Shown: in pieces, positions 125 to 54,369 of the stretch
Position numbering within the stretch: the first letter of the stretch is position 1
Layout: each line of letters starts with the position of its first letter
DNA from: Candidatus Poribacteria bacterium
GTDB taxonomy: Bacteria; Poribacteria; WGA-4E; WGA-3G
Direction of reading: 5' to 3'
NCBI GenBank assembly: GCA_963667365.1
Contig: OY763324.1
Span: 1,210,071-1,274,070 of the forward strand
DNA: 64,000 bases
Notes under the pieces: generated by a model
Told to the model about the DNA's origin: nothing
Databases searched by the model: none
The model's input: only the letters and a program-made list of their open reading frames with translations
Translations under genes and position numbers: made by a program

Positions 125-829
125 TTAACTTCTCCAAAAGATGAGAAAACTCAAAAACATCATTATTCCCATGAAGAGACCACACCTTATCCCTGCAATT
201 AAGGCAGGTTGATTACGATGATAATAGTATGGACATAGGGTAAAGGTAAGCAAAAATGTAATTGGCATAAAGATTGGTACTGATGCGATGTTCGGAATGT
301 GGTCAACACGTAGGGCGTTCCATTCCCATAATTCTTTCCCGAGTCCATAGACTGTGATGCTACCGAGTGCTGACACAATGCCTGTTATCCCTGAAGCAAC
401 AAAACGGTGTTGCCCAAACAATTGCAGTCGATGGTAGAGGTAAACTGCCAAGGTCGCAAGAACCACCCACGTCAATATGAGACCAATCGGGGTCGTAACA
501 TTTCCAAAAAAGTCTGAGCTGCGGTAGATAATAAACTGCACCTTTTTTGAAAATAACCAATCCATCGGTAGGTAAATTAATGTTGCTGTGAATCCAAACA
601 GGACACTTTGCCATAGTATATCTGGCGATTCATCCTCGGCATTACCTGGACCTTTCCGGATGAGATAACCGAACCACCCGATTGCAAGTAACACGTTCGG
701 ATATAGCAACCAGATAGCACGAATTCCTAACGACCTTATCGGCAATAAAAACAATAATAAGAACGTTAAAAACGTAGTTAAGGCTACAGTGAATACGGCT
801 TTATCTGTTTTGAGATTCATTTCGTTCAT
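125..829 (-). CDS. multi-pass integral membrane protein (about 6 predicted TM helices), function unknown
   Basis: The 234-aa ORF has repeated ~20-aa hydrophobic segments. It starts 40 nt downstream of the ArsA-like gene on the same strand, making it the likely last gene of a four-gene operon. Confidence 0.5.
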   Translation of the reverse strand: MNEMNLKTDKAVFTVALTTFLTFLLLFLLPIRSLGIRAIWLLYPNVLLAIGWFGYLIRKGPGNAEDESPDILWQSVLFGFTATLIYLPMDWLFSKKVQFIIYRSSDFFGNVTTPIGLILTWVVLATLAVYLYHRLQLFGQHRFVASGITGIVSALGSITVYGLGKELWEWNALRVDHIPNIASVPIFMPITFLLTFTLCPYYYHRNQPALIAGIRCGLFMGIMMFLSFLIFWRS

Positions 830-868
830 CTAAAGGCTCAATTTGAGACGTTTCACTTTACTAAAAGT

Positions 869-2047
869 TTATCTGAACGTGATAACAAGTTGCTGTCCGG
901 TAAGTTTGGCACCTGTTGCTTTAGTGCTTGACAGACTACGAGGTAGGGCAACATGTCGTTTAAAGCCGCCAATAGTTATGATTAACTCGTCACCATGCTT
1001 GGAGAGATCGACCTCTTGTTTTGATAAAAAAGGAAGTTGCATCACAAGTTGATATCCATCATCAACTTTTTTAAATTGATACGGACTTTGTTCGGAAAAT
1101 ATGTCTGCTGGATCAATATCGGAATAAAGCATATTTCCTAACTTACGGAGTCCTTTTTCTCCAATTATTTGATCGTCAAAAAGGTTTACTTTCCAAATCG
1201 GGACATCCGAGAAATAGTTTTCTGCTTCCGCTATATATTGCTGTTGTGTCTGTTTCCAAACTTCAAAAAACTTCTCCTCTACACCTTCTGGGAAGATACG
1301 ATTGATAATGACAGCATCAATACATAACCCATAAAGGCAAAAGTACATAAACGCTCGTTGTGTTTCTTTGATAACGATCTTTTCTGGATTTGTAACAAGG
1401 CGGACGCTGGTTATTTTTGGGTCCGTTAGTACTGTGTCAATCCCTTCAAGTTTCTCAAATAGGTTTTGGATATTTTGAAAGTATGCATCTTTTGGTATCG
1501 GGACAGAACTGACAGTCTCTATGATCGGTCCTGCAATTTTTGCGAGGTTACGTTCTAATTTGAATATGCGATTCATATACCATTCAAGCGTAGTAGGGAT
1601 GCTAACGAACCTCAACGATTCTCCGGTTGGTGCGCAGTCAAGTATAATTACATCATAAGTGTCTTCACGGACGTACTGGTTAATGTAAAGAAGCGCGCAG
1701 ATTTCCTCCATACCCGGAAATACCGCAATCTCTTCTGCGACGAGGCTTTCCAAACCTGAGCGATTCAGCATAGAACGGATGTAATTGTAAACTTCGTCCC
1801 AGTATTCAACGATTGCCTCTTGGACGTTAATTTCTTGGATCCAGAGATTTTCATTAATTTGTATCTGTTTTTCATTCGTTTTTGCAATGAGACGTTTTTC
1901 ACTATCAAAAGAATCGCGCAGCGAATGTGCTACATCAAGTGAGATGACAATCGTCTTATGTCCAAGTGATGCCAACTTCAAGCCAGTTGCGGCGGAGATA
2001 GTTGTTTTACCGACTCCCCCTTTACCCGTGTATAAAATAATTCGCAC
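869..2047 (-). CDS. ArsA/GET3-family P-loop ATPase with a C-terminal Hsp20/alpha-crystallin-like domain (Get3d-like architecture)
   Basis: The N-terminus carries the P-loop GKGGVGKTT. ISLDVAHSL matches the ArsA/Get3 DPAHSL signature, and DCAPTGESLRF matches the DTAPTGHT switch-II signature. A ~90-aa beta-rich C-terminal extension (ELIITIGGFKRHVALP...LVITF) resembles the Hsp20/CS fold. Confidence 0.8.
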   Translation of the reverse strand: MRIILYTGKGGVGKTTISAATGLKLASLGHKTIVISLDVAHSLRDSFDSEKRLIAKTNEKQIQINENLWIQEINVQEAIVEYWDEVYNYIRSMLNRSGLESLVAEEIAVFPGMEEICALLYINQYVREDTYDVIILDCAPTGESLRFVSIPTTLEWYMNRIFKLERNLAKIAGPIIETVSSVPIPKDAYFQNIQNLFEKLEGIDTVLTDPKITSVRLVTNPEKIVIKETQRAFMYFCLYGLCIDAVIINRIFPEGVEEKFFEVWKQTQQQYIAEAENYFSDVPIWKVNLFDDQIIGEKGLRKLGNMLYSDIDPADIFSEQSPYQFKKVDDGYQLVMQLPFLSKQEVDLSKHGDELIITIGGFKRHVALPRSLSSTKATGAKLTGQQLVITFR

Positions 2048-2342
2048 TTTATGATATCCTACCTATCTGTTTATTTTTAATTAAGTATACCTTAAAAACA
2101 TCCAATATGCAAACAAGCCTGTGTATCCAATTACCCAGTCTTGAAGCACTATTCACCTGCTCCCAATAATGCTACCTTTATGTGGAGATAGACTTGCTAT
2201 ACAATTTTCTGTATTGATATAACATTATTTCGTAAGTTGGGTTTTGCAAACTCAACTTACCAATTTATTGGTATTATTAGGATGGTAGATGTGAAGCAGG
2301 AAGGATATGGTGTGAATTAAACCGTTGACCTTTGACATGTAG

Positions 2343-4331
2343 TTACGGAAGGCTATAAACACCCCACCGCACCTTTACAATCTCACCCGTACTAACAAGA
2401 CGACCAAGTTCATTTTTTATTGCTTTTGGATGTCCTTCTATGGCTTCAATAAGTTCCGCAGTTCTTTTTTCACCATCAGCAAGGAGCGATAAGATTTGTA
2501 CTCGGAAAGGGATACGGAGCGGTCTTCCGCCTCGAAGTTTGTGCAGGACACGGTTCGCTTGCCTTGATGAGCATCCCAAGATATATTCTACCTGTTCTCT
2601 GCTGGATTTATCAGTTAGATTGTCACGTTCTTTTTCAAATCGTTCGCGTATTGCTACCACTTCAGGTAGTTTCTCAAGTCCACCAGCAACTTCAAAATCC
2701 TCCCAGTCAAAAAGTATGGTTTCTTGCCTGTTGGTGATTTGGGGCAGTGCCATGCTGGAAAGTAATATCACCTTTTTGTTAGGTAGCTGGTCCAACTTTG
2801 TCCATTGAACAATGCGAGAGAGTTTCGGTATGACACTTTGTTCATAAACACTTTTAACTCGTTTATCTATATAGTGTCCGACTTCCGTATCTTCGTCATA
2901 GAATAGGGGTTCTTTATCGTTTCCAAACAGAATCTGTGAATGTTTCCAAATGTCTCCCTGTGGGAGTGTTGGTGTGCCAATTATCCATACGACATTAGCC
3001 TCTTCAAAAGCAGAATTTAACCCTTTCGTATTTTCAAAATGTGCCACGGCACATACGTTTGCATTTTTTTCCAGGTGTGTTAACTGCTGGGCAACTGCCT
3101 TATAGGAAATAATGGCATGCTTAAATTTTGGATATCTTTCAATTTCAGTATAGATACCATGAAAAAAACGCTGTCCGATTTTAGATATACCAATAAAATC
3201 CAAGTTGTCGTTGTATTCTAAAATAGTTTTCCGCGGATAGATACCTGTCCGAATCTGAAAAACTCTGTTCCCCGTAACCCAAGCCGATGGTTCAGAATGA
3301 CGTACCTCAATGTTCTCATCTGGAAATGCTCTACGGAGATGTTGTTCCGACAAGTTCCCTGACATTAATAAGAGACGTTTGACGTTTGGGTGTAGAACCG
3401 GCGGCATCCAGAATTTTAACATTTTACCTGTCCACCTTATTGGAGAATCTGCATCACGCGTATAATGAGAGAAGAAAAATTTGAGTTGATGCCAATATGT
3501 CCAGTTTGGATCAGGACTGATTGTAGGTAATTTCTGAATATCTGCAACAGTCTCTACAGGGAAAATACCTAATTGGATGGCTTGTGTCATAGACATCAGA
3601 ATTTTTATTTCTTCGTTAAGTGCAAATGAAGGTAATGGATGATTAGGTAAACCTTTAGCAGCGAGTTTTTCTGTAGCATCCTCGTCAAGAGGAATGTAAG
3701 CAAATGCACCGCCTTCAAAAGTAATGCCAAAACGTGCTAATTGCTCTCCAGTGTCGGTATCAACAAATCTTTTCTTAACGACTCTACCTCGCACACCGAC
3801 TTGACACATCTGATTATTAAGTTTTTCTTCTTGCCATTCAAATGCTTGTATTACTGCACGAATTCGTTTTACAGCATTTGCATGAGGTATATCCTTAATT
3901 ACTACTGCATGCAATAAAGCCTTAGCAAAGTTCCCTAAGGCACTCCCTTGCCAGTTAACACTCCATTCTTCCAATACCTTTTTTGATAGATTACATTCAG
4001 GAAACAACTTGTGTGCTTCCATCCTATCAATGATGCAAAGCCTTTCCGTGTCATCCATCTGTTTGAGAATTTCTTCAGCAATTTCTGCGTATTGTGGATC
4101 GAAAAAAAGCTCGGGGAGTGCCATTATTTGTGTCTTAGCGCGATTTAATGATGTGGGTTGTGATAGAAATCCGCGCTGCTGGCACGTAGTATAAACAGAA
4201 CACTGTGGACAGATGCTCTCACTGGCATCTCCACCTTTTTCCTCAATGGCATCGCAACGTTCAGGATCTTCACATACGTTACCCAGTTGGAAGGGTGTTG
4301 CCATGCGAACGTCGACAGGTATCTTTTTCAC
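2343..4331 (-). CDS. hypothetical 662-aa protein with an N-terminal Cys cluster and a C-terminal winged-helix-like region
   Basis: A GTG start sits 5 nt after a GGGAG Shine-Dalgarno sequence and 27 nt downstream of the preceding ORF. The N-terminus contains CPQCSVYTTC, the C-terminal ~70 aa look like a wHTH, and there is no Walker A or other enzymatic motif. Confidence 0.55.
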   Translation of the reverse strand: MKKIPVDVRMATPFQLGNVCEDPERCDAIEEKGGDASESICPQCSVYTTCQQRGFLSQPTSLNRAKTQIMALPELFFDPQYAEIAEEILKQMDDTERLCIIDRMEAHKLFPECNLSKKVLEEWSVNWQGSALGNFAKALLHAVVIKDIPHANAVKRIRAVIQAFEWQEEKLNNQMCQVGVRGRVVKKRFVDTDTGEQLARFGITFEGGAFAYIPLDEDATEKLAAKGLPNHPLPSFALNEEIKILMSMTQAIQLGIFPVETVADIQKLPTISPDPNWTYWHQLKFFFSHYTRDADSPIRWTGKMLKFWMPPVLHPNVKRLLLMSGNLSEQHLRRAFPDENIEVRHSEPSAWVTGNRVFQIRTGIYPRKTILEYNDNLDFIGISKIGQRFFHGIYTEIERYPKFKHAIISYKAVAQQLTHLEKNANVCAVAHFENTKGLNSAFEEANVVWIIGTPTLPQGDIWKHSQILFGNDKEPLFYDEDTEVGHYIDKRVKSVYEQSVIPKLSRIVQWTKLDQLPNKKVILLSSMALPQITNRQETILFDWEDFEVAGGLEKLPEVVAIRERFEKERDNLTDKSSREQVEYILGCSSRQANRVLHKLRGGRPLRIPFRVQILSLLADGEKRTAELIEAIEGHPKAIKNELGRLVSTGEIVKVRWGVYSLP

Positions 4332-4358
4332 CTGCTCCCACAGGTAGATGCGAGGTTT

Positions 4359-5705
4359 TCAGCGTTCGTACAATCGTAGATTCTGACTCTGATAGCGATT
4401 TTCTAATTTTTCTGCGTACTTGTAAGTCGGTACGTTCAGACAAGTTGCCTCTTCGTTATGTACGAAGGAATCTGCTTCATAGTTTTGCTCTGTGCCTGAA
4501 TCTGCAATCAGTCCAAGTATACGATCTGTCTGCTCAAAGATAGTTTGTGCCTTGTTGCCATTTGGTTGGGGTTGTTCTGATTTTTGCAACATAGGTGAAG
4601 GACGTTTTATCGCCAAAGGACTAAGTTTTCCTTTCCGAACTGTGAGGATTGTGTCGGGTAAAGGTATGTCTACATGCGATATCTGTGTAGGAATCCCTGT
4701 GTCATTCCATACCTCCGTTATTGGTGTGGAGATGGTGGGTACTTCAATATTAGCGGAGGAGGCGCGTATCCACACGGTGCCTTCGTTTTCCCATAATGAG
4801 ATATTATGGTCACGAACAACTTTGCCAGGTGGAGTCCAAATATATGATTCATTATGTTTTCGGACATAGGAGAAACCTCGCTGGAGAAGTGACTCTTTGG
4901 CGAGGTCAAGGTTGTGCGAACCCAGTGAGATAGGTACTTCAGATATATTTGTATTTTGATTTATTTTTTCTGGTGCGGGTTCATGTAATTCAGCACGTAG
5001 GGCATCAATAGGTGCAAAGACTACTTCTTTGTCAATGATAGGCGGATCTAACAGATTCCCAAGTAGGATTTCATATCGCGCATCCCAGCGGCTGTAACCT
5101 TTTTCACCATTGATCTTAAGATATATATCACGAGCATACGGATTATCCGTTTTGGGTGTGTACTTGTAGATATAAGGTTTACCATCCTCGGTATTTGGAT
5201 GTAGATAATCTGGCACCCTACAGGAAAATCGCAATCCTCCAGATTTCGTCATCGCTAACAACGGGTTTGAAACAGCGTTCGTCAGCGTTTCTATACAGTT
5301 AAGCACACCATCAGGGAAGGCACAAATTGCTGTATATGTAAAATTGAAGTCGTGCCATCTTGCACCGTCAAGCTCAGAAGGAATGCCGGTATACACCTGA
5401 ATTCCCCAAGACGCGTGCCAATACCTCATTCCCCAATTTTGTATCCCCTGCCGCGTCAAGAAGCGTTCACCACCTAAGGTCCTTGGACCACGATCATTGT
5501 CGGGAGCACGTCCTATTGGCATGAATGAGAGTTTGGCATTTTCCAAATCGGCAAGTAGCAAAGGATATTTGTAGGCACAATAAACCGTTAAGTGGTAAGG
5601 AAAACCTATATTATACAGAGCGGGTTTTACCACTGTTCTTCGCTGTAGAAGCGGTTTTTCGCGCCGTTCGTGGCATCGCTGAATAAGATCTTTTATGGAA
5701 TCCAT
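4359..5705 (-). CDS. hypothetical 448-aa protein with weak resemblance to archaeo-eukaryotic primase (Prim-Pol) motifs
   Basis: This is the first gene of the module. It contains DND followed ~80 aa later by TKSGGLRF, reminiscent of AEP motif I (DxD) and motif II (T-x-SGG-x-H-x-YF). The similarity is weak and unverified. Confidence 0.45.
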   Translation of the reverse strand: MDSIKDLIQRCHERREKPLLQRRTVVKPALYNIGFPYHLTVYCAYKYPLLLADLENAKLSFMPIGRAPDNDRGPRTLGGERFLTRQGIQNWGMRYWHASWGIQVYTGIPSELDGARWHDFNFTYTAICAFPDGVLNCIETLTNAVSNPLLAMTKSGGLRFSCRVPDYLHPNTEDGKPYIYKYTPKTDNPYARDIYLKINGEKGYSRWDARYEILLGNLLDPPIIDKEVVFAPIDALRAELHEPAPEKINQNTNISEVPISLGSHNLDLAKESLLQRGFSYVRKHNESYIWTPPGKVVRDHNISLWENEGTVWIRASSANIEVPTISTPITEVWNDTGIPTQISHVDIPLPDTILTVRKGKLSPLAIKRPSPMLQKSEQPQPNGNKAQTIFEQTDRILGLIADSGTEQNYEADSFVHNEEATCLNVPTYKYAEKLENRYQSQNLRLYER

Positions 5706-5883
5706 AACTAAAGAATAACAATTTTGGAGGTCAAAATTGCCTTACAGAATAACATGTTAGTTGATTATAACTATAGAACGATGGATCTTATATATTAGTT
5801 TAACATAATTTAAATTTTAAAGCAATATTTTCGAGAATATTGTAAGGGTGTGTAAAGTTTATGTCAATATTTACTCAATAAAT

Positions 5884-5980
5884 CCCTGTAGAAGCACTCT
5901 CCGAATCGCGACCTATCGTGCCAAATCAACGGTATGGAATACCATCTAAGCATTCCCCGGAGTTCCCTCCTACAATGAAT
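5884..5980. repeat. MITE/REP-like palindromic element (inverted arms CTGTAGAAGCACTCTCCGAATCGCGAC ... CCGGAGTTCCCTCCTACAATGA)
   Basis: Both arms match the arms of the element at 36905-36980 (in reverse orientation) and the solo motifs at 35467, 46323 and 52445. Confidence 0.6.
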
Positions 5981-6373
5981 TGTGCGGTTTCAGTTCTCTA
6001 CATAGTATCTGAAAACTAAATCAGCGGTACAAAATAGTATAATATGGCTTATCGAATCCACTTTCAATAATATGAGAATACCGGTACAGAGGACTTTCTG
6101 ATTAGTTCACAGAGTGTCGTTTTTCCATAATTTGCAATAGAATCTAAATTTATTCAAATTTAATTTGACATATTAAGTTACTGTAGAGTATAATTAGCCA
6201 TATTAGGACTAATATATTATTATTTCATAAATTAGTAATATAAGTCTTAACGCAACTTGGTTATATCTTATTTATTATATGTAAGATGAGTTTAATCAAA
6301 AAAGTAATAAATTTACTTTGTAGAAATAGTACCACAGTATATTGACTGACTGATGTGAGTTGAACTACAAAGA

Positions 6374-6948
6374 GTGGGTGATGATTACACAACACCTTTT
6401 GATATGTCCTATGATATGCAAGCAGCCTTTTCAAGAGGTGAGAAGGCATTTTTTAAAGTATTCACACCGGAAGAAGGTTTGGGACCGGTATTCAATAATA
6501 CTGGATGTGTCAGTTGTCATCCATCAAACGGACGCGGCACACCAGATTTAATTCTTATCCGGTTTAGTATTGGTGATAATCTCATGCTTGATCAGGGAGG
6601 ACCCCAGTTCCAAGACAAAGCCATCCCTGATGTTCCATACGAAATGCTTCCAATAGGTGTGGACAAATCACCACGACTTCCTCCTCCAGTCTTTGGGATG
6701 GGACTTATTGAAAATATACCAGTTGAGACGATTTTAGAAAACGAAGACGAAGTTGGCGAACTCGTTTAGTAGCGGAATTTCTTGGTGGTACTCCGTTTTT
6801 CCTTCACGATGGACGCGCAACAACACTTCGCGGTGCTATTCGGGCACACGGAGGTGAAGCACAAAAAACATAAGAGGAATTTTTTAATCTGTTTAATCTG
6901 TCTGAAACTGATCAACAAGCGGTTATCGCTTTTATCAGTTCACTTTGA
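6374..6948 (+). pseudogene. DUF1111-family di-heme cytochrome c peroxidase-like gene remnant (N-terminal fragment, internal deletion, frameshift, in-frame stop)
   Basis: N-terminal fragment 6374-6769 has GLGPVFNNTGCVSCHPSNGRG (first CxxCH) and RLPPPVFGMGLIENIP. A frame change follows at ~6775 giving EFLGGTPFFLHDGRATTLRGAIRAHGGEAQKT, then an in-frame TAA, then EEFFNLFNLSETDQQAVIAFISSL. About 250 aa of the middle are missing, including the second heme site. Confidence 0.7.
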
Positions 6949-7612: not shown

Positions 7613-10045
7613 TTAACGATCTTCACCGTAATCTGGTTCTGTTGCATGTTGGACAACCCAATTTTCAAAAACCGATTTAAACGACTTCGCTTTGTCACCA
7701 AAATGAATATACTGGATACTGTTGATAGGCACCGACACCTCTCCATAAATTTTTGAACGTCCCAACAACCTTTCACCTTTAACCTCAAGTGGTTCAAAAA
7801 TCAGGATCGGATTGTGGATCAATGCAAAGCGAATTTCAGACGTGGGAGTTGTTAACTGTTGGCTATCGGGTTTCTGCAACACATCTGCATTTTCCCCATT
7901 TCCTGTCTCTTCTGCTGGTTCGTCGTGTGCGTCAACACTAATATCAACTACCCGAGCCACGCGTTCAATAGGTAACGTAATTTTTTGTAGTCTTGATTCA
8001 AATTGAATTGTTTTTCCGTTGAAACTCAGTAATTTACCTCGTTTTACATCCCCGTTTTTTGCAATAAGAATGTGGTGGGGCGGATTATCTCGGTTGAATC
8101 GTGGGACGGTGAGTGCGCGTTCTAAATTTACATCTAATTTCTCTGGTTGGGTTTCAAGCGGATCAAACATAAGTTCAACAGCACGTTTAAGAGCAGCAGC
8201 ATCATTATCTGCTAAATCTCCCCCGATTACGACTTTAAGCATCTGCGTGGGGTCATTGATATCCACTTCAATTTCCAGATTACCATCTTTTGTTCTGTGC
8301 ATCTCACCTTCCAAAATTCGACCATCCTCTAATATAATACGGTGTTTGTTCCCTCCAGTGATAGTAATAGGATTTCGGTTTTCCTTTCGTGCGTGTGTTT
8401 TTCCGCGTGAGAATTCAATACCTTTTATATGTTCTGTGCTGATGTGTGTCTTACCTACAAAAGGTGATCGGAAGTTAATGCGGGATTCATCTATAGACAA
8501 GATTTGAGATGGAATAACTTCTCCGTTTTTTAGATGCATTAGATGCGGGAACGTCTTTATATCAAAGGGGTGTAATCTTGAAACATGTTTATTGTGGCGT
8601 TCGACGCGGGGAGATAGGTTATTTGCTATCTGAACTGGCTCGGAAGTACCTACAGGCTGCCAATTGATACTGGATTTATTTTCAGTGTCAATAATCAATT
8701 GACCACGAAGACTACTTGAAGGGAAAAACATTGTGTCATAAGATGCAATAGGTCCCTTTACTTTAGGGTCAGACCCAAGCCGTAGTAGAGACGCTCCATT
8801 GAGAGAACAAGTTATAGGTTTGACTGCATACTTTGTTTCGATTATAGCACTATCTGCGTTCAATTGTAGTACTTGTCCACTAATAACGGAACCATTAAGA
8901 TATGTCAATTCCATGTTTTGTTCTGTCTCTACCAACGTCCGTCCTGGTTGTACAACACGATCAATCTGCAATAGGTCAATATTCGATTTCGTGCCATCGG
9001 TATCAAGGACATAGGTGTTACCATTTTCAATATATAGTTTACCGTGAAAAGCTTCTCCGCTCATCATGTGGACTCGCGGTTTGGAAAAGTCGATTTGCTG
9101 ATGTCTAAATTCAGAGGGTTGCCGATAGACCCTCAACCTTTGCACAGTCATGTCTTGTCCTCGGTTATAAATATAAATACCGGGTACCTCAGTGGTTGGA
9201 CTTACTTCATCCAATTTCAACAGCAAATTACCGTTAACATCAAATACCTTTAACACTCCAGTTTCTTGGTCATAAGCGAGGCGTAACCGGAAGTTCCGGT
9301 GATGCGGTTGGATTGTCAATATTTTTTCATAAAGTGTGCCTTGGACAACAACAAGATCTTTTGCCCATGTTTCTACACGTAATGCTTCATAAAGGTTTTT
9401 GCCGAGTGAGAAAACAAAGCCTGGTGGACCTGTAGCAGATCCCAATTCAACGTCAATTTCAAAGCGCGTGGGCCATTCAAGGGGATAAAATATGCTTGTC
9501 TTAGACTTTTCTGTCCGCGGTTGTCCACCACGTTCGGCATACCAACCTGTAGTCTTATTTTTTGTTTGGTTTTCATTCTGTTCGGATAATTGCCATGCTG
9601 CCAGTTGTGAACCGTCAAAAATGAGATTGGAATGTGCTCGATTTTCGAGTGAGTAAATCATTTCCCTATTTACTCTAAAATCACCGTATTGTTCGCTGAA
9701 AAAGTGAATGGTGTTTTCATCTGAACCTGTAATGTCCGCTATCCAGATATCACCTGATACTGTACCGACGCGAAATGTACCATTGACTGGTGAGGTTTGT
9801 TTTGAGAAAACAATCGAATCCAATACGTTGATGTCAATATTTAGATCGTCTATAAAGTATGGAGACTTCCAGCGAATTTCCCCAGGTTTACCCTCTAACA
9901 GTTCACCAGCGAGAGAATCACCATTTTTCCAACGTAATTTTGTTTCCTCAGCATGTGTATTGATGGGAAGCCATATCCCCGCAAGGGTTATGAGAATCCC
10001 TGAGATGATGTGTAGGCATCTACGCATTGCATTTCTCCTTGACAT
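7613..10045 (-). CDS. secreted 810-aa beta-rich protein, function unknown
   Basis: N-terminal signal peptide (MRRCLHIISGILITLAGIWLPINTHAEE). It is the last gene of the long minus-strand array. Confidence 0.6.
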   Translation of the reverse strand: MSRRNAMRRCLHIISGILITLAGIWLPINTHAEETKLRWKNGDSLAGELLEGKPGEIRWKSPYFIDDLNIDINVLDSIVFSKQTSPVNGTFRVGTVSGDIWIADITGSDENTIHFFSEQYGDFRVNREMIYSLENRAHSNLIFDGSQLAAWQLSEQNENQTKNKTTGWYAERGGQPRTEKSKTSIFYPLEWPTRFEIDVELGSATGPPGFVFSLGKNLYEALRVETWAKDLVVVQGTLYEKILTIQPHHRNFRLRLAYDQETGVLKVFDVNGNLLLKLDEVSPTTEVPGIYIYNRGQDMTVQRLRVYRQPSEFRHQQIDFSKPRVHMMSGEAFHGKLYIENGNTYVLDTDGTKSNIDLLQIDRVVQPGRTLVETEQNMELTYLNGSVISGQVLQLNADSAIIETKYAVKPITCSLNGASLLRLGSDPKVKGPIASYDTMFFPSSSLRGQLIIDTENKSSINWQPVGTSEPVQIANNLSPRVERHNKHVSRLHPFDIKTFPHLMHLKNGEVIPSQILSIDESRINFRSPFVGKTHISTEHIKGIEFSRGKTHARKENRNPITITGGNKHRIILEDGRILEGEMHRTKDGNLEIEVDINDPTQMLKVVIGGDLADNDAAALKRAVELMFDPLETQPEKLDVNLERALTVPRFNRDNPPHHILIAKNGDVKRGKLLSFNGKTIQFESRLQKITLPIERVARVVDISVDAHDEPAEETGNGENADVLQKPDSQQLTTPTSEIRFALIHNPILIFEPLEVKGERLLGRSKIYGEVSVPINSIQYIHFGDKAKSFKSVFENWVVQHATEPDYGEDR

Positions 10046-36904: not shown

Positions 36905-36980
36905 CTTCTTTGTAGGAGGGAACTCCGATTCCCGACCATACATATCCATAGTCGCGATTCGGAGATCGCTCCTACAGAAG
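36905..36980. repeat. MITE/REP-like palindromic element (two ~30-bp inverted arms around a 15-bp spacer)
   Basis: CTTCTTTGTAGGAGGGAACTCCGATTCCCGACC ... GTCGCGATTCGGAGATCGCTCCTACAGAAG; the two arms are mutually reverse-complementary. Confidence 0.6.
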
Positions 36981-52728: not shown

Positions 52729-52816
52729 GGTGGGATGGCTGAGCGGACGAAGGCGGCGGTCTTGAAAACCGTTGTGGCGTAAGTCACCGTGGGTTCGAAT
52801 CCTACTCCCACCGCCA
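52729..52816 (+). tRNA. tRNA-Ser (TGA), CCA encoded
   Basis: Type II, anticodon loop CUUGAAA. Confidence 0.85.
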
Positions 52817-52821
52817 TATAT

Positions 52822-52906
52822 GGAGAGGTGCAGGAGTGGTTGAACTGGACTGCCTGCTAAGCAGTTATGGCGCAAGCCATCGTGGGTTCGAATCCCACCC
52901 TCTCCG
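52822..52906 (+). tRNA. tRNA-Ser (GCT)
   Basis: Type II, anticodon loop CUGCUAA. Confidence 0.85.
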
Positions 52907-52999
52907 TTTTTAACTTATAATCACGCATACAGTGTCGTTGGGATAAACTTTAAAAACCCTGCGAAATCATATTAGATCACCGAAACTTTGGTGAAACAT

Positions 53000-53073
53000 G
53001 CGCCTGTAGCTCAGTGGATTAGAGCATCTGACTACGGATCAGAAGGCCGGGGGTTCGAATCCTCTCAGGCGCT
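53000..53073 (+). tRNA. tRNA-Arg (ACG)
   Basis: Anticodon loop CUACGGA. Confidence 0.85.
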
Positions 53074-53147
53074 TTTTGACTCTTGAGATAATGCAGCAAA
53101 AGACCTTAAGAGTTAGGGAAAATAATAGTTGAAACGTTGTTCCTGTT

Positions 53148-53606
53148 ATGCAAATTTTGGATAACGATGTCTTGTGGATGGAGCAAGCACTTGAATTAGC
53201 AAGGCAGGCTGACGAAAAAGGTGAAGTTCCTGTCGGTGCGATAATTGTTAAAGACAATGCTTGTATCGCAGCTGCTCATAATCTTCGGGAACATACTGGA
53301 AATCCAATTGCACACGCAGAGATGCTTGCGATACAGGAAGCAGCTGAAAAACTTGGCAACTGGCGTTTGACAGATACCATATTATATGTGACTTTGGAAC
53401 CGTGTCCGATGTGTGCTGGGGCGATAGTTTTGTCACGTATTCCCAAGGTTGTTTATGCTGCTACCGATCCGAGAGCAGGTGCAGCGGGAACACTTTACAA
53501 TATTGTTCAAGATGAACGTTTGAATCATCGAGTGGAATTGGTAAGCGGAGTATTTGCCGAAGAAAGCAGTGCACTGTTGAAATCGTTTTTTAAAAACCAT
53601 CGTTGA
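53148..53606 (+). CDS. tadA: tRNA-specific adenosine-34 deaminase
   Basis: HAEMLAI...PCPMCAGA zinc-binding CDA motifs and a 152-aa length. Confidence 0.85.
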   Translation: MQILDNDVLWMEQALELARQADEKGEVPVGAIIVKDNACIAAAHNLREHTGNPIAHAEMLAIQEAAEKLGNWRLTDTILYVTLEPCPMCAGAIVLSRIPKVVYAATDPRAGAAGTLYNIVQDERLNHRVELVSGVFAEESSALLKSFFKNHR

Positions 53607-53631
53607 TACCTATAGTTAACAGTCCGAATAA

Positions 53632-53716
53632 GGAGAGATGCAGGAGCGGTTGAACTGGACAGTCTCGAAAACTGTTGTGGCGCAAGTCACCGTGGGTTCG
53701 AATCCCACTCTCTCCG
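53632..53716 (+). tRNA. tRNA-Ser (CGA)
   Basis: Type II, anticodon loop CUCGAAA. Confidence 0.85.
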
Positions 53717-53845
53717 TTTTGATCGGTGTATAAACGAACCATTCCACACATATTAACGGTTTGTGCTACAATATACTTCTTGAATAAACGGCAAATATAT
53801 CGGGACGGATGTCCATAAGACTAAAAACAATGTTTCAGTTACCTT

Positions 53846-53918
53846 GGGGCAGTAGCTCAGTTGGGAGAGCGCATCCCTCGCACGGATGAGGTCACGGGTT
53901 CAAATCCCGTCTGCTCCA
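53846..53918 (+). tRNA. tRNA-Ala (CGC)
   Basis: G3:U70 identity pair and anticodon loop CUCGCAC. Confidence 0.8.
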
Positions 53919-53935
53919 TTTTTGTAACACTTTTC

Positions 53936-54027
53936 GGAGAGATGCAGGAGTTGGTTGAACTGGCATGACTGGAAATCATGTGTGCTGTTTTGCAGTACCG
54001 TGGGTTCGAATCCCACTCTCTCCGCCA
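53936..54027 (+). tRNA. tRNA-Ser (GGA), CCA encoded
   Basis: Type II, anticodon loop CUGGAAA. Confidence 0.85.
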
Positions 54028-54099
54028 TTTTTTGGAGCAACGCCGGTTTAGCGTTCTTAAACCGGCAAATCTCACATCCGATGAAGAATATAACGCCTT

Positions 54100-54369
54100 G
54101 GCTATGCTAGGTGGGGAGGTAGCGGTGCCTTGTATCTGCAATCCGCTATAGCAGAACTGAATTCCCAGTATGAGGCCTGTTTTTGTGGGGACTGTCCCAA
54201 GCACGTAGCGTTGATAGTCGGGTCTTGAGCAACGGGTGCTTATTGAACCCCGTCAGGTCTGGAAGGAAGCAGCGGCAGATGAGTTTTCTCGTGTGACGCA
54301 AGGTAGCCTGACTTGAGCCAACGACCTGGGCAACGCCCGGAAAAGCTTGTCAAATCTGGGTGCATAGCC
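54100..54369 (+). ncRNA. ffs: signal recognition particle RNA, long (Bacillus-type, ~270 nt) form
   Basis: Domain IV motif GTCAGGTCTGGAAGGAAGCAGC at 54252-54273 followed by GGCAGATGA. The 5' GGCTATGC can pair with the 3' GCATAGCC. It sits immediately upstream of dnaX-ybaB-recR, the conserved synteny. Boundaries are approximate. Confidence 0.7.

Follow-up and report, generated by a model that had tools for sequence, protein, structure and literature searches.

A Get3-type ATPase cluster conserved with HslVU in Candidatus Poribacteria and the split, motif-degenerate helicase-like gene beside it

Two gene units side by side

The window analyzed here is a 64,000-nt stretch of a Candidatus Poribacteria bacterium (GCA_963667365.1, contig OY763324.1, positions 1,210,071 to 1,274,070), and its left end carries four co-directional open reading frames (ORFs), which we call g1 to g4 in the order of transcription (Table 1). 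We consider it probable that they represent two independent units that have become adjacent by chance in this lineage. The first comprises g3, a Get3-fold ATPase with an alpha-crystallin domain, and g4, a small membrane protein, both belonging to a conserved cluster with hslV and hslU that would serve proteostasis. The second comprises g1 and g2, the halves of one split gene related to primase-helicases, which would be an ATPase-dead relic. The window is a chromosomal segment of a sponge symbiont, in which a signal recognition particle (SRP) RNA and nine tRNAs were found, and all named homologues of the four proteins come from Candidatus Poribacteria.

An earlier reading made from the letters of this DNA (the sequence-only reading) had proposed a four-gene module around the ATPase. 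Much of its description holds: the gaps are 27 nt (g1-g2), 295 nt (g2-g3) and 39 nt (g3-g4), g3 joins an ArsA/GET3-type ATPase to an Hsp20-like domain, the six transmembrane (TM) segments expected in g4 compare with the 6 to 7 hydrophobic segments predicted, and g2 has an N-terminal Cys cluster (residues 20-50), a C-terminal winged helix-turn-helix (wHTH) and degenerate motifs in place of an NTPase signature. The grouping of the four genes, on the other hand, is not supported by their distribution: in most other genomes they do not occur together, an outcome that the sequence-only reading itself had named as refuting the module.

A conserved g3-g4-hslV-hslU cluster

The g3 protein matches ArsA_ATPase (9.7e-97) and ArsA_HSP20 (PF17886; 2.5e-21) in Pfam, the latter over the full profile (1-63). 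The deviant Walker A (GKGGVGKTT, residues 8-16), switch I (DVAHSL, 38-43) and switch II (DCAPTGES, 137-144) are intact, and the score of 260.9 bits against TIGR00345 (Get3/TRC40/ArsA) passes the cut-off of 135. Its nearest relatives in the PDB are archaeal Get3 proteins (3ug6, 7e-46; 3zq6, 7e-44), and the alignment with MjGet3 crosses the TRC40-insert region (helix 7-9, the region of the hydrophobic groove) with small gaps only, while the g3 sequence has no CxxC motif. A widespread class of bacterial Get3 homologues, found in many non-photosynthetic organisms, carries an alpha-crystallin domain, and its function is described as unknown (Bodensohn et al. 2019, PMC6593721). Judged by its domains and motifs, g3 is a member of this class. 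According to Barlow et al. (2023, PMC10248533), the related Get3d, known from plants and cyanobacteria, would require new partners that have yet to be identified. The g3 protein is nearer to the archaeal Get3 than to Nostoc All4481 (1e-21) or AtGet3d (1e-10; PDB 3igf and 8elf were compared) and stays below the equivalog cut-off of the Nostoc Get3d family NosAFP (150 bits against 325). On these scores it would fall outside the Get3d clade of cyanobacteria, green bacteria and plants. Across 76 Poribacteria species g3 keeps 75-91% identity, and the ratio of nonsynonymous to synonymous substitution rates (dN/dS) against orthologous loci is 0.04-0.07 (about 0.05), which indicates strong purifying selection.

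The g4 protein scores 26.2 bits against DUF6989, just under the cut-off of 27, and many of its orthologues carry the domain (PF22497). A scan with one genome per species gave 80 loci that encode g4, every one in Poribacteria, and synteny in these loci was investigated by tblastn with six proteins. The order g3>g4>hslV>hslU was found in 75 loci, and a further one has g3>g4>hslV followed by the contig end, so that the order holds in 76 of 79 informative loci, a share inflated by common ancestry within one phylum. In the window itself, hslV and hslU are located just past the left edge. The median spacing is about 9 nt for g3-g4, often with overlap, 121 nt for g4-hslV and 110 nt for hslV-hslU. Proteasome and AAA_2 genes are found downstream even where g4 identity is only 46-47%, and the dN/dS of g4 is about 0.15. 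The surroundings are variable: upstream of g3 there is rplM-rpsI-purA, a gene for an 810-aa protein or g1-g2, depending on the clade, and the genes downstream of hslU also vary between clades. Because the flanks differ while g3-g4-hslV-hslU stays together, we argue that the linkage is selected. The conserved unit around the ATPase is thus g3-g4-hslV-hslU, and g3 and g4 are core genes of the phylum rather than island genes.

The strongest alternative, still an unlikely one, is that this order is inherited synteny and g4 an unrelated membrane protein. It would fit a set of 80 loci drawn from a single phylum, the three species in which the g3-g4 link is broken, and a g4-hslV gap wide enough for separate promoters. 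It accounts less well for a block that persists while the flanks on both sides change by clade and g4 identity falls to 43% (the range being 43-84%), and for a g3-g4 gap so short that the genes often overlap. The three species are those of loci L016, L018 and L049. An IS5-like transposase ORF lies upstream in L016, and in L018 (4838-7696) g2 almost adjoins g4, at a distance of 177 nt.

One gene split into g1 and g2

With g2 as query, more than 1200 clusters were obtained, and most of the top matches are proteins of about 1130 aa. In one of these, P0023 (1133 aa), residues 1-456 align to g1 with 59% identity and residues 469-1131 to g2 with 66%. Since g1 and g2 together align end to end with such proteins, we regard them as a single gene, the two halves of a protein that is fused in most relatives. 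Separate functions for g1 and g2 are rejected in view of the same fused relatives. Gene calls in independent assemblies also give the split form (448-455 aa plus 653-670 aa), and separate halves occur at the g3 site in at least 12 species, with identity down to 61% for g1 and 69% for g2, so the split is real and old. The break falls between the Walker A position and the Cys cluster.

No match was found for g1 in Pfam, NCBIfam, PADLOC, PHROGs or PDB sequences, and for g2 only weak winged-helix matches were obtained from the same sources. A RecA-like helicase fold is recognized in the helicase-like core, of the superfamily 2 (SF2) type and similar to XPD/DinG, and the C-terminus of g2 has the wHTH fold (AbiEi_4 or ArsR-like). 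The catalytic motifs I, II, III and VI are all lost in the copy of the window, as can be seen by comparison with intact relatives (Table 1). What remains is a Cys core of the form C-x20-C-x2-C-x5-C between Walker A and motif II, nearly invariant in the family and kept in distant relatives. This is the place of the Fe-S domain in XPD/DinG helicases, and DNA enzymes with 4Fe-4S clusters typically show a C-x2-C-x5-C spacing. The four-Cys cluster is probably of the Fe-S type.

Against the orthologous loci L012 and L013, dN/dS is 0.13-0.15 for g1 and 0.15 for g2 (over the two halves, ranges of 0.12-0.15 and 0.10-0.15 were obtained), similar to that of g4, and both halves are under purifying selection. 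This bears on the possibility that g1-g2 is a non-functional relic, an already inactive gene hit by a nonsense mutation and persisting by chance. The split itself, the loss of Walker A and of motifs II, III and VI, the adjoining true pseudogene and the absence of the pair from related genomes would all agree with it. We nevertheless find it improbable, since both halves are full-length ORFs in at least 12 species at the divergence given above, their dN/dS equals that of g4, and near-invariance persists in the Cys cluster and the winged helix and at many sites of the N-terminal domain.

The nature of that N-terminal domain deserves some caution. In 260 homologues D119, the SGGLR motif and D208 are nearly invariant, and at the second acidic position ([D/E/N]121) the window copy has Asn. 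These residues, which correspond to the faint AEP-like motifs noted in the sequence-only reading, resemble motifs I (DxD), II (sGxGxH) and III (hD) of archaeo-eukaryotic primases (AEP), a likeness that we regard as unproven. Neither g1 nor any of 37 family members has a Pfam match to an AEP family in this domain; NCBIfam gave no AEP match for g1 or the fused paralogue P0023, and PHROGs gave none for g1. An hhalign comparison with the BT4734-like_N set returned a probability of 0.3%, limited to the SGG region, and the AlphaFold2 model of g1 is too poor for a fold comparison (pLDDT 55). Some sister proteins, however, have a genuine AEP domain at the same position, which makes an AEP identity of the g1 N-terminus plausible.

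A large family with many degenerate copies

When 1.84 billion proteins were searched with a profile built from 30 fused proteins, 602 representatives at 50% identity were recovered, and the family has no family-level match in Pfam, NCBIfam or PHROGs. Two distant members, P0416 and P0449, have an N-terminal BT4734-like_N domain (1e-21), PriCT_2 and the NCBIfam PrimPol_Db (1e-25), followed by a weak ResIII/DEAD match at Walker A and, at the C-terminus, an AbiEi_4 winged helix. Of 70 diverse representatives, 33 have all four SF2 motifs, against one of 94 close Poribacteria homologues; 44 of these 94 are devoid of all three key motifs (the GK of Walker A, the DE of motif II and the GRxR of motif VI).

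The Poribacteria branch is also multiplied. Three copies were found on one 5.3-Mb contig, and at 90% identity the family falls into at least 1227 clusters, where the single-copy g4 gives 132 in the same database, from which we estimate about nine copies per genome as a rough average. Fused paralogues are solitary or in tandem (1145 and 1074 aa), with varied and unrelated neighbors, as seen in the loci examined (L007, 5847-13225; L006, 7480-16499). Among these loci, one copy adjoins TnpB, a HaeII-type restriction-modification pair, a VWA protein and a DDE transposase, a neighborhood reminiscent of a defence or mobile-element island.

Among relatives with intact motifs, P0412 and P0392 lie in long runs of short ORFan genes on the same strand, with RHH and STIV_B116-like genes nearby, whereas an AAA_25 gene is found near P0416; of the three contexts examined, two (L093, 1-23237; L094/L095) are among runs of short ORFans without Pfam or PHROG match. 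The contexts of P0412 and P0392 look like mobile-element DNA of viral or plasmid type, perhaps from uncharacterised viruses or plasmids of sponge metagenomes.

Probable independence of the two units

The gene distribution separates g1-g2 from g3-g4. In 64 of the 80 loci, g3 and g4 are found without g1-g2. The pair precedes g3 in 11 loci and directly precedes g4 in L018, which gives 12 loci with g1 identities of 61-79%, and a paralogue of 44-47% identity lies upstream of g3 in three more, for a total of 15 loci with a g1-g2-like gene upstream. In blastn and tblastn comparisons with L027, L029 and L024, homology ends at window position 7613 and returns at about 2096, 49 nt upstream of g3. The empty sites of L027 and L029 measure 600-850 bp between the 810-aa gene and g3. 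In L005 the genes that come after a di-haem oxidoreductase (DHOR) gene and g1-g2 are unrelated ones. Neither the four genes nor the variable segment is flanked by long direct or inverted repeats, and the intergenic DNA has diverged too far for insertion ends to be located.

A single four-gene operon is rejected on this distribution. The looser proposal that g1-g4 make up a single Get3-like module for targeting or chaperoning, g1 and g2 being its accessory factors, draws on the co-directional genes with short gaps and on the order shared with the nearest relatives, found in 11 of the 80 species and with the divergent paralogue in place of the pair in three others. It is very unlikely, considering the 64 species that keep g3-g4-hslVU without the pair, the different neighbors of the L005 pair, the approximately nine stand-alone copies of the family per genome, and the homology with empty sites, which resumes early enough to leave g3 its own upstream region. 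A 295-nt gap with a hairpin also separates g2 from g3. This hairpin (2232-2260, 13-bp stem) has no T-run after it on the minus (coding) strand and, from its sequence, is not a canonical terminator.

Equally unlikely is the reading of all four genes as a mobile or defence island in decay, with g1 as primase-polymerase, g2 as DNA-binding protein and g3 as SIMIBI ATPase. The segment upstream of g3 does vary by species and carries a pseudogene and a MITE-like repeat (miniature inverted-repeat transposable element), and relatives of g1-g2 have AEP primase domains, some in mobile-element-like contexts. The variable segment ends before g3 and g4, however, which are constrained core genes; g1 and g2 are one gene rather than two functions, under purifying selection and not simply decaying; and PADLOC matches are limited to a weak winged helix (AbiEi) in g2 and a P-loop-only match in g3. 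Conservation across the phylum rules out g3-g4 as accessory island genes.

That g3 is an arsenite-pump ATPase (ArsA) with partner genes elsewhere is hardly credible: despite the Pfam name of its domain and PDB relatives deposited as 'arsenical pump-driving ATPase', these top matches are really archaeal Get3, the protein has a single ATPase domain in 392 aa in place of a tandem of about 580 aa, it falls far below the ArsA equivalogs (105 bits against 650 for TIGR04291; 123 against 800 for NF041417), and no ars gene occurs among the called neighbors of eleven loci (L001-L011) or in the scanned 24 kb of the window. Arsenic resistance, already doubted in the sequence-only reading, is rejected on the single domain, the low scores and these neighbors.

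Other proposals of that reading survive in part. An accessory island describes the variable segment and not the g3-g4 core, with its g3 dN/dS of about 0.05. A Get3-like unit with a membrane partner is viable for g3-g4 and does not extend to g1-g2, homologues of which are usually solitary elsewhere in the chromosome. A mobile-element remnant that has lost its integrase fits g1-g2, with which no integrase was found and for which presence/absence polymorphism was observed at the empty sites; it does not fit the g3-g4 core, and the pair is one split gene instead of a primase plus a DNA-binding protein.

Flanking sequences and repeats

Upstream of g1 there is an AT-rich spacer, with GC down to 0.30 across 5751-6500, followed by the remnant of a DHOR gene; the AT-rich stretch, the MITE-like element and the decayed pseudogene had all been noted from the letters. 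The repeat of about 90 nt has inverted ends (CTGTAGRAGC ... CCCTCCTACA) and a second, reversed copy at 36906-36977, about 100 nt upstream of a tRNA-Met gene. Pieces of it are found in intergenic DNA of other Poribacteria (L018, 1132-1169; L022, 7783-7813; L025, 8569-8604), and it is likely a MITE or a REP-like (repetitive extragenic palindromic) element. The DHOR pseudogene keeps residues 43-174 and 356-412 of the 412, with the middle deleted, a frameshift and an in-frame stop; Pfam matches to DHOR were found in the relatives' loci L001 and L005.

A perfect sigma-70 consensus (TTGACA-18-TATAAT, 12/12) is located at 6165-6194 on the plus strand, directed at the start of the DHOR pseudogene near 6359, and may be the still intact promoter of a recently decayed gene. 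The number of sites in a promoter and terminator scan of the region was not above the shuffled expectation. The 810-aa protein gene (7613-10045, minus strand) has no Pfam match, shows 63-68% identity and is syntenic upstream of the g3 site in several Poribacteria species, and its product appears to be phylum-specific. Further away, a cluster of RNA genes (52729-54367) contains four tRNA-Ser, tRNA-Arg and tRNA-Ala, then the large bacterial SRP RNA.

Table 1. Features of the g1-g4 region, in window coordinates.
Feature	Position	Strand	Description and basis
g1	4359-5705	-	ORF of 448 aa
g2	2343-4331	-	ORF of 662 aa
g3	869-2047	-	ORF of 392 aa
g4	125-829	-	ORF of 234 aa
g3 domains		-	Residues 1-308, single Get3/ArsA-fold ATPase; 329-391, alpha-crystallin/HSP20-like; Pfam
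g1 domains		-	Residues 1-250, conserved N-terminal domain; ~260-330, small beta-rich middle; then start of helicase-like core
g2 domains		-	Cys cluster, degenerate SF2 (XPD/DinG-like) helicase core, winged helix
Near-invariant g1 residues	5070-5357	-	WHD119-F-N121-F, S155-G-G-L-R159, W207-D208-x-R-x-E212; column counts, 260 homologues
Walker A position (motif I), degenerate	4482-4505	-	g1 residues 401-408, ADSGTEQN; relatives xxTGxGK[TSDN]; MAFFT and hmmalign
Cys cluster	4182-4274	-	g2 C20, C26, C41, C44, C50; sequence
Motif II, degenerate	4011-4034	-	IIDRMEAH; intact relatives hhDE[AV]xAH
Motif III, degenerate	3348-3365	-	MSGNLS; intact relatives MSATL
Motif VI, degenerate	2793-2819	-	SRIVQWTKL; intact relatives QAxGRxRL
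C-terminal wHTH	2346-2534	-	g2 residues ~600-662
Species-variable segment	2097-7612		g1-g2, AT-rich spacer, DHOR pseudogene, 144-aa ORF; flanked by the 810-aa gene and the region upstream of g3
Promoter-like site	5839-5867	-	TTGACA-17-TACAAT (11/12), ~135 nt upstream of g1; consensus match only
MITE/REP-like repeat	5886-5979		~90 nt with inverted ends, within the AT-rich spacer
DHOR (PF06537) pseudogene	6359-6945	+	tblastn with the intact 412-aa protein of L005

Possible functions

Get3 acts as a holdase (PMC3613179). For the g3-g4 unit we propose that a dimer of the Get3-fold ATPase would capture exposed hydrophobic segments of membrane or unfolded proteins, as both targeting factor and holdase, with the alpha-crystallin domain adding to or regulating the holdase activity. 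The DUF6989 protein could be the docking or hand-over partner at the membrane, and clients that are not placed might be passed to HslVU, in which case the genes would form a membrane-proximal quality-control cluster unrelated to arsenic resistance. We infer these functions from domain composition, gene order, the short g3-g4 gap and purifying selection. A more specific version, in which DUF6989 is the membrane receptor or insertase of bacterial Get3 ATPases with an alpha-crystallin domain and, with HslVU, triages hydrophobic or tail-anchored proteins between insertion and degradation, is speculative and on balance doubtful; if true, it would supply a candidate for the missing partner of plant and cyanobacterial Get3d.

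For g1-g2, the ancestor may have been the replication primase-helicase of a mobile element. Chromosomal copies would have been retained, perhaps exapted, as ATP-independent DNA-binding proteins of two subunits, with the winged helix and the metal cluster, and could regulate, sense or compete with related elements, with no functional tie to the g3 ATPase. The domain content and the lost motifs suggest that a mobile-element replication protein has left behind a DNA-binding, ATPase-dead relic, kept or exapted by the host. It is less likely that the approximately nine motif-dead paralogues per genome are decoys or dominant-negative inhibitors directed against related mobile elements.

Several points weigh against this interpretation of the region. 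A g1-g2-like gene upstream of g3 in two separate clades (12 and 3 loci) is above a naive chance estimate, and a local functional link between g1-g2 and g3 may exist. The family was absent from IMG/VR, GenBank phages and PLSDB plasmids, and no integrase, capsid or other hallmark gene was found near the relatives with intact motifs in a PHROG scan of their neighbors; a mobile-element origin is suggested by domain composition and ORFan-rich contexts. In the Cys-cluster region the model has low confidence (pLDDT below 50), and the metal could be Fe-S or Zn. On the side of the cluster, besides the single phylum sampled and the three species in which g3 is not beside g4, it is order and spacing that suggest co-transcription of g3-g4-hslVU, and g4 is at most a candidate counterpart of the Get1/WRB/YidC-type insertases.

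Significance

The class to which g3 belongs is widespread yet without known function or partner, and the adjacency of DUF6989 and HslVU across a phylum offers a concrete, testable hypothesis. Such a neighborhood of a Get3-type ATPase is not described in PMC6593721 or PMC10248533; DUF6989 has no mention in the searchable literature, and a search for literature on Poribacteria primases or helicases returned nothing relevant. The g1-g2 pair exposes a large unannotated family that combines a primase-type N-terminus, a four-Cys helicase and a winged helix. Its Poribacteria branch multiplied, lost its ATPase motifs and stayed under selection, which could mean that sponge symbionts have domesticated a replication protein of mobile elements. 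Annotators should regard g1 and g2 as one split gene and avoid the label of an arsenic pump for g3. We see in these results two testable leads and no demonstrated new mechanism.

Comparison with known systems

Among helicases, the closest comparison for g1-g2 is with XPD/DinG/Rad3 of SF2, although the pair has no sequence match to helicases of Pfam, NCBIfam or the PDB; the window copy differs in lacking the catalytic motifs and in having an extra N-terminal domain, a C-terminal winged helix and two polypeptides. A second likeness is with the primase-polymerase/helicase/winged-helix replication proteins of plasmids and viruses (ORF904 of Sulfolobus pRN1 and the BT4734-like primases of Bacteroides conjugative elements). 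The order is the same, with an AEP prim-pol at the N-terminus (in P0416 and P0449), then a helicase, then a winged helix at the C-terminus, and some distant members are in mobile-element-like neighborhoods. The helicase, in contrast, is of the XPD/DinG-like SF2 type and not SF3, the Poribacteria copies are chromosomal, solitary, multi-copy and degenerate, and the AEP nature of g1 is unproven.

The GET pathway of eukaryotes and archaea resembles g3-g4 in having a soluble Get3-fold ATPase beside a small polytopic membrane protein that could take over its clients. It differs in that g4 has 6 to 7 TM segments and is related to DUF6989, equivalents of Get4/5 or Sgt2 are missing, and the HslVU link has no counterpart. 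The best comparison is with the bacterial Get3 proteins with an alpha-crystallin domain and with Get3d. The NosAFP cut-off is failed, the host is non-photosynthetic and sponge-associated, and the ATPase domain is nearer to archaeal Get3; g3 has the same single ATPase domain with intact P-loop and switches, the lack of a CxxC zinc motif and the ArsA_HSP20 C-terminus, and its alignment with Get3 runs through the TRC40-insert region.

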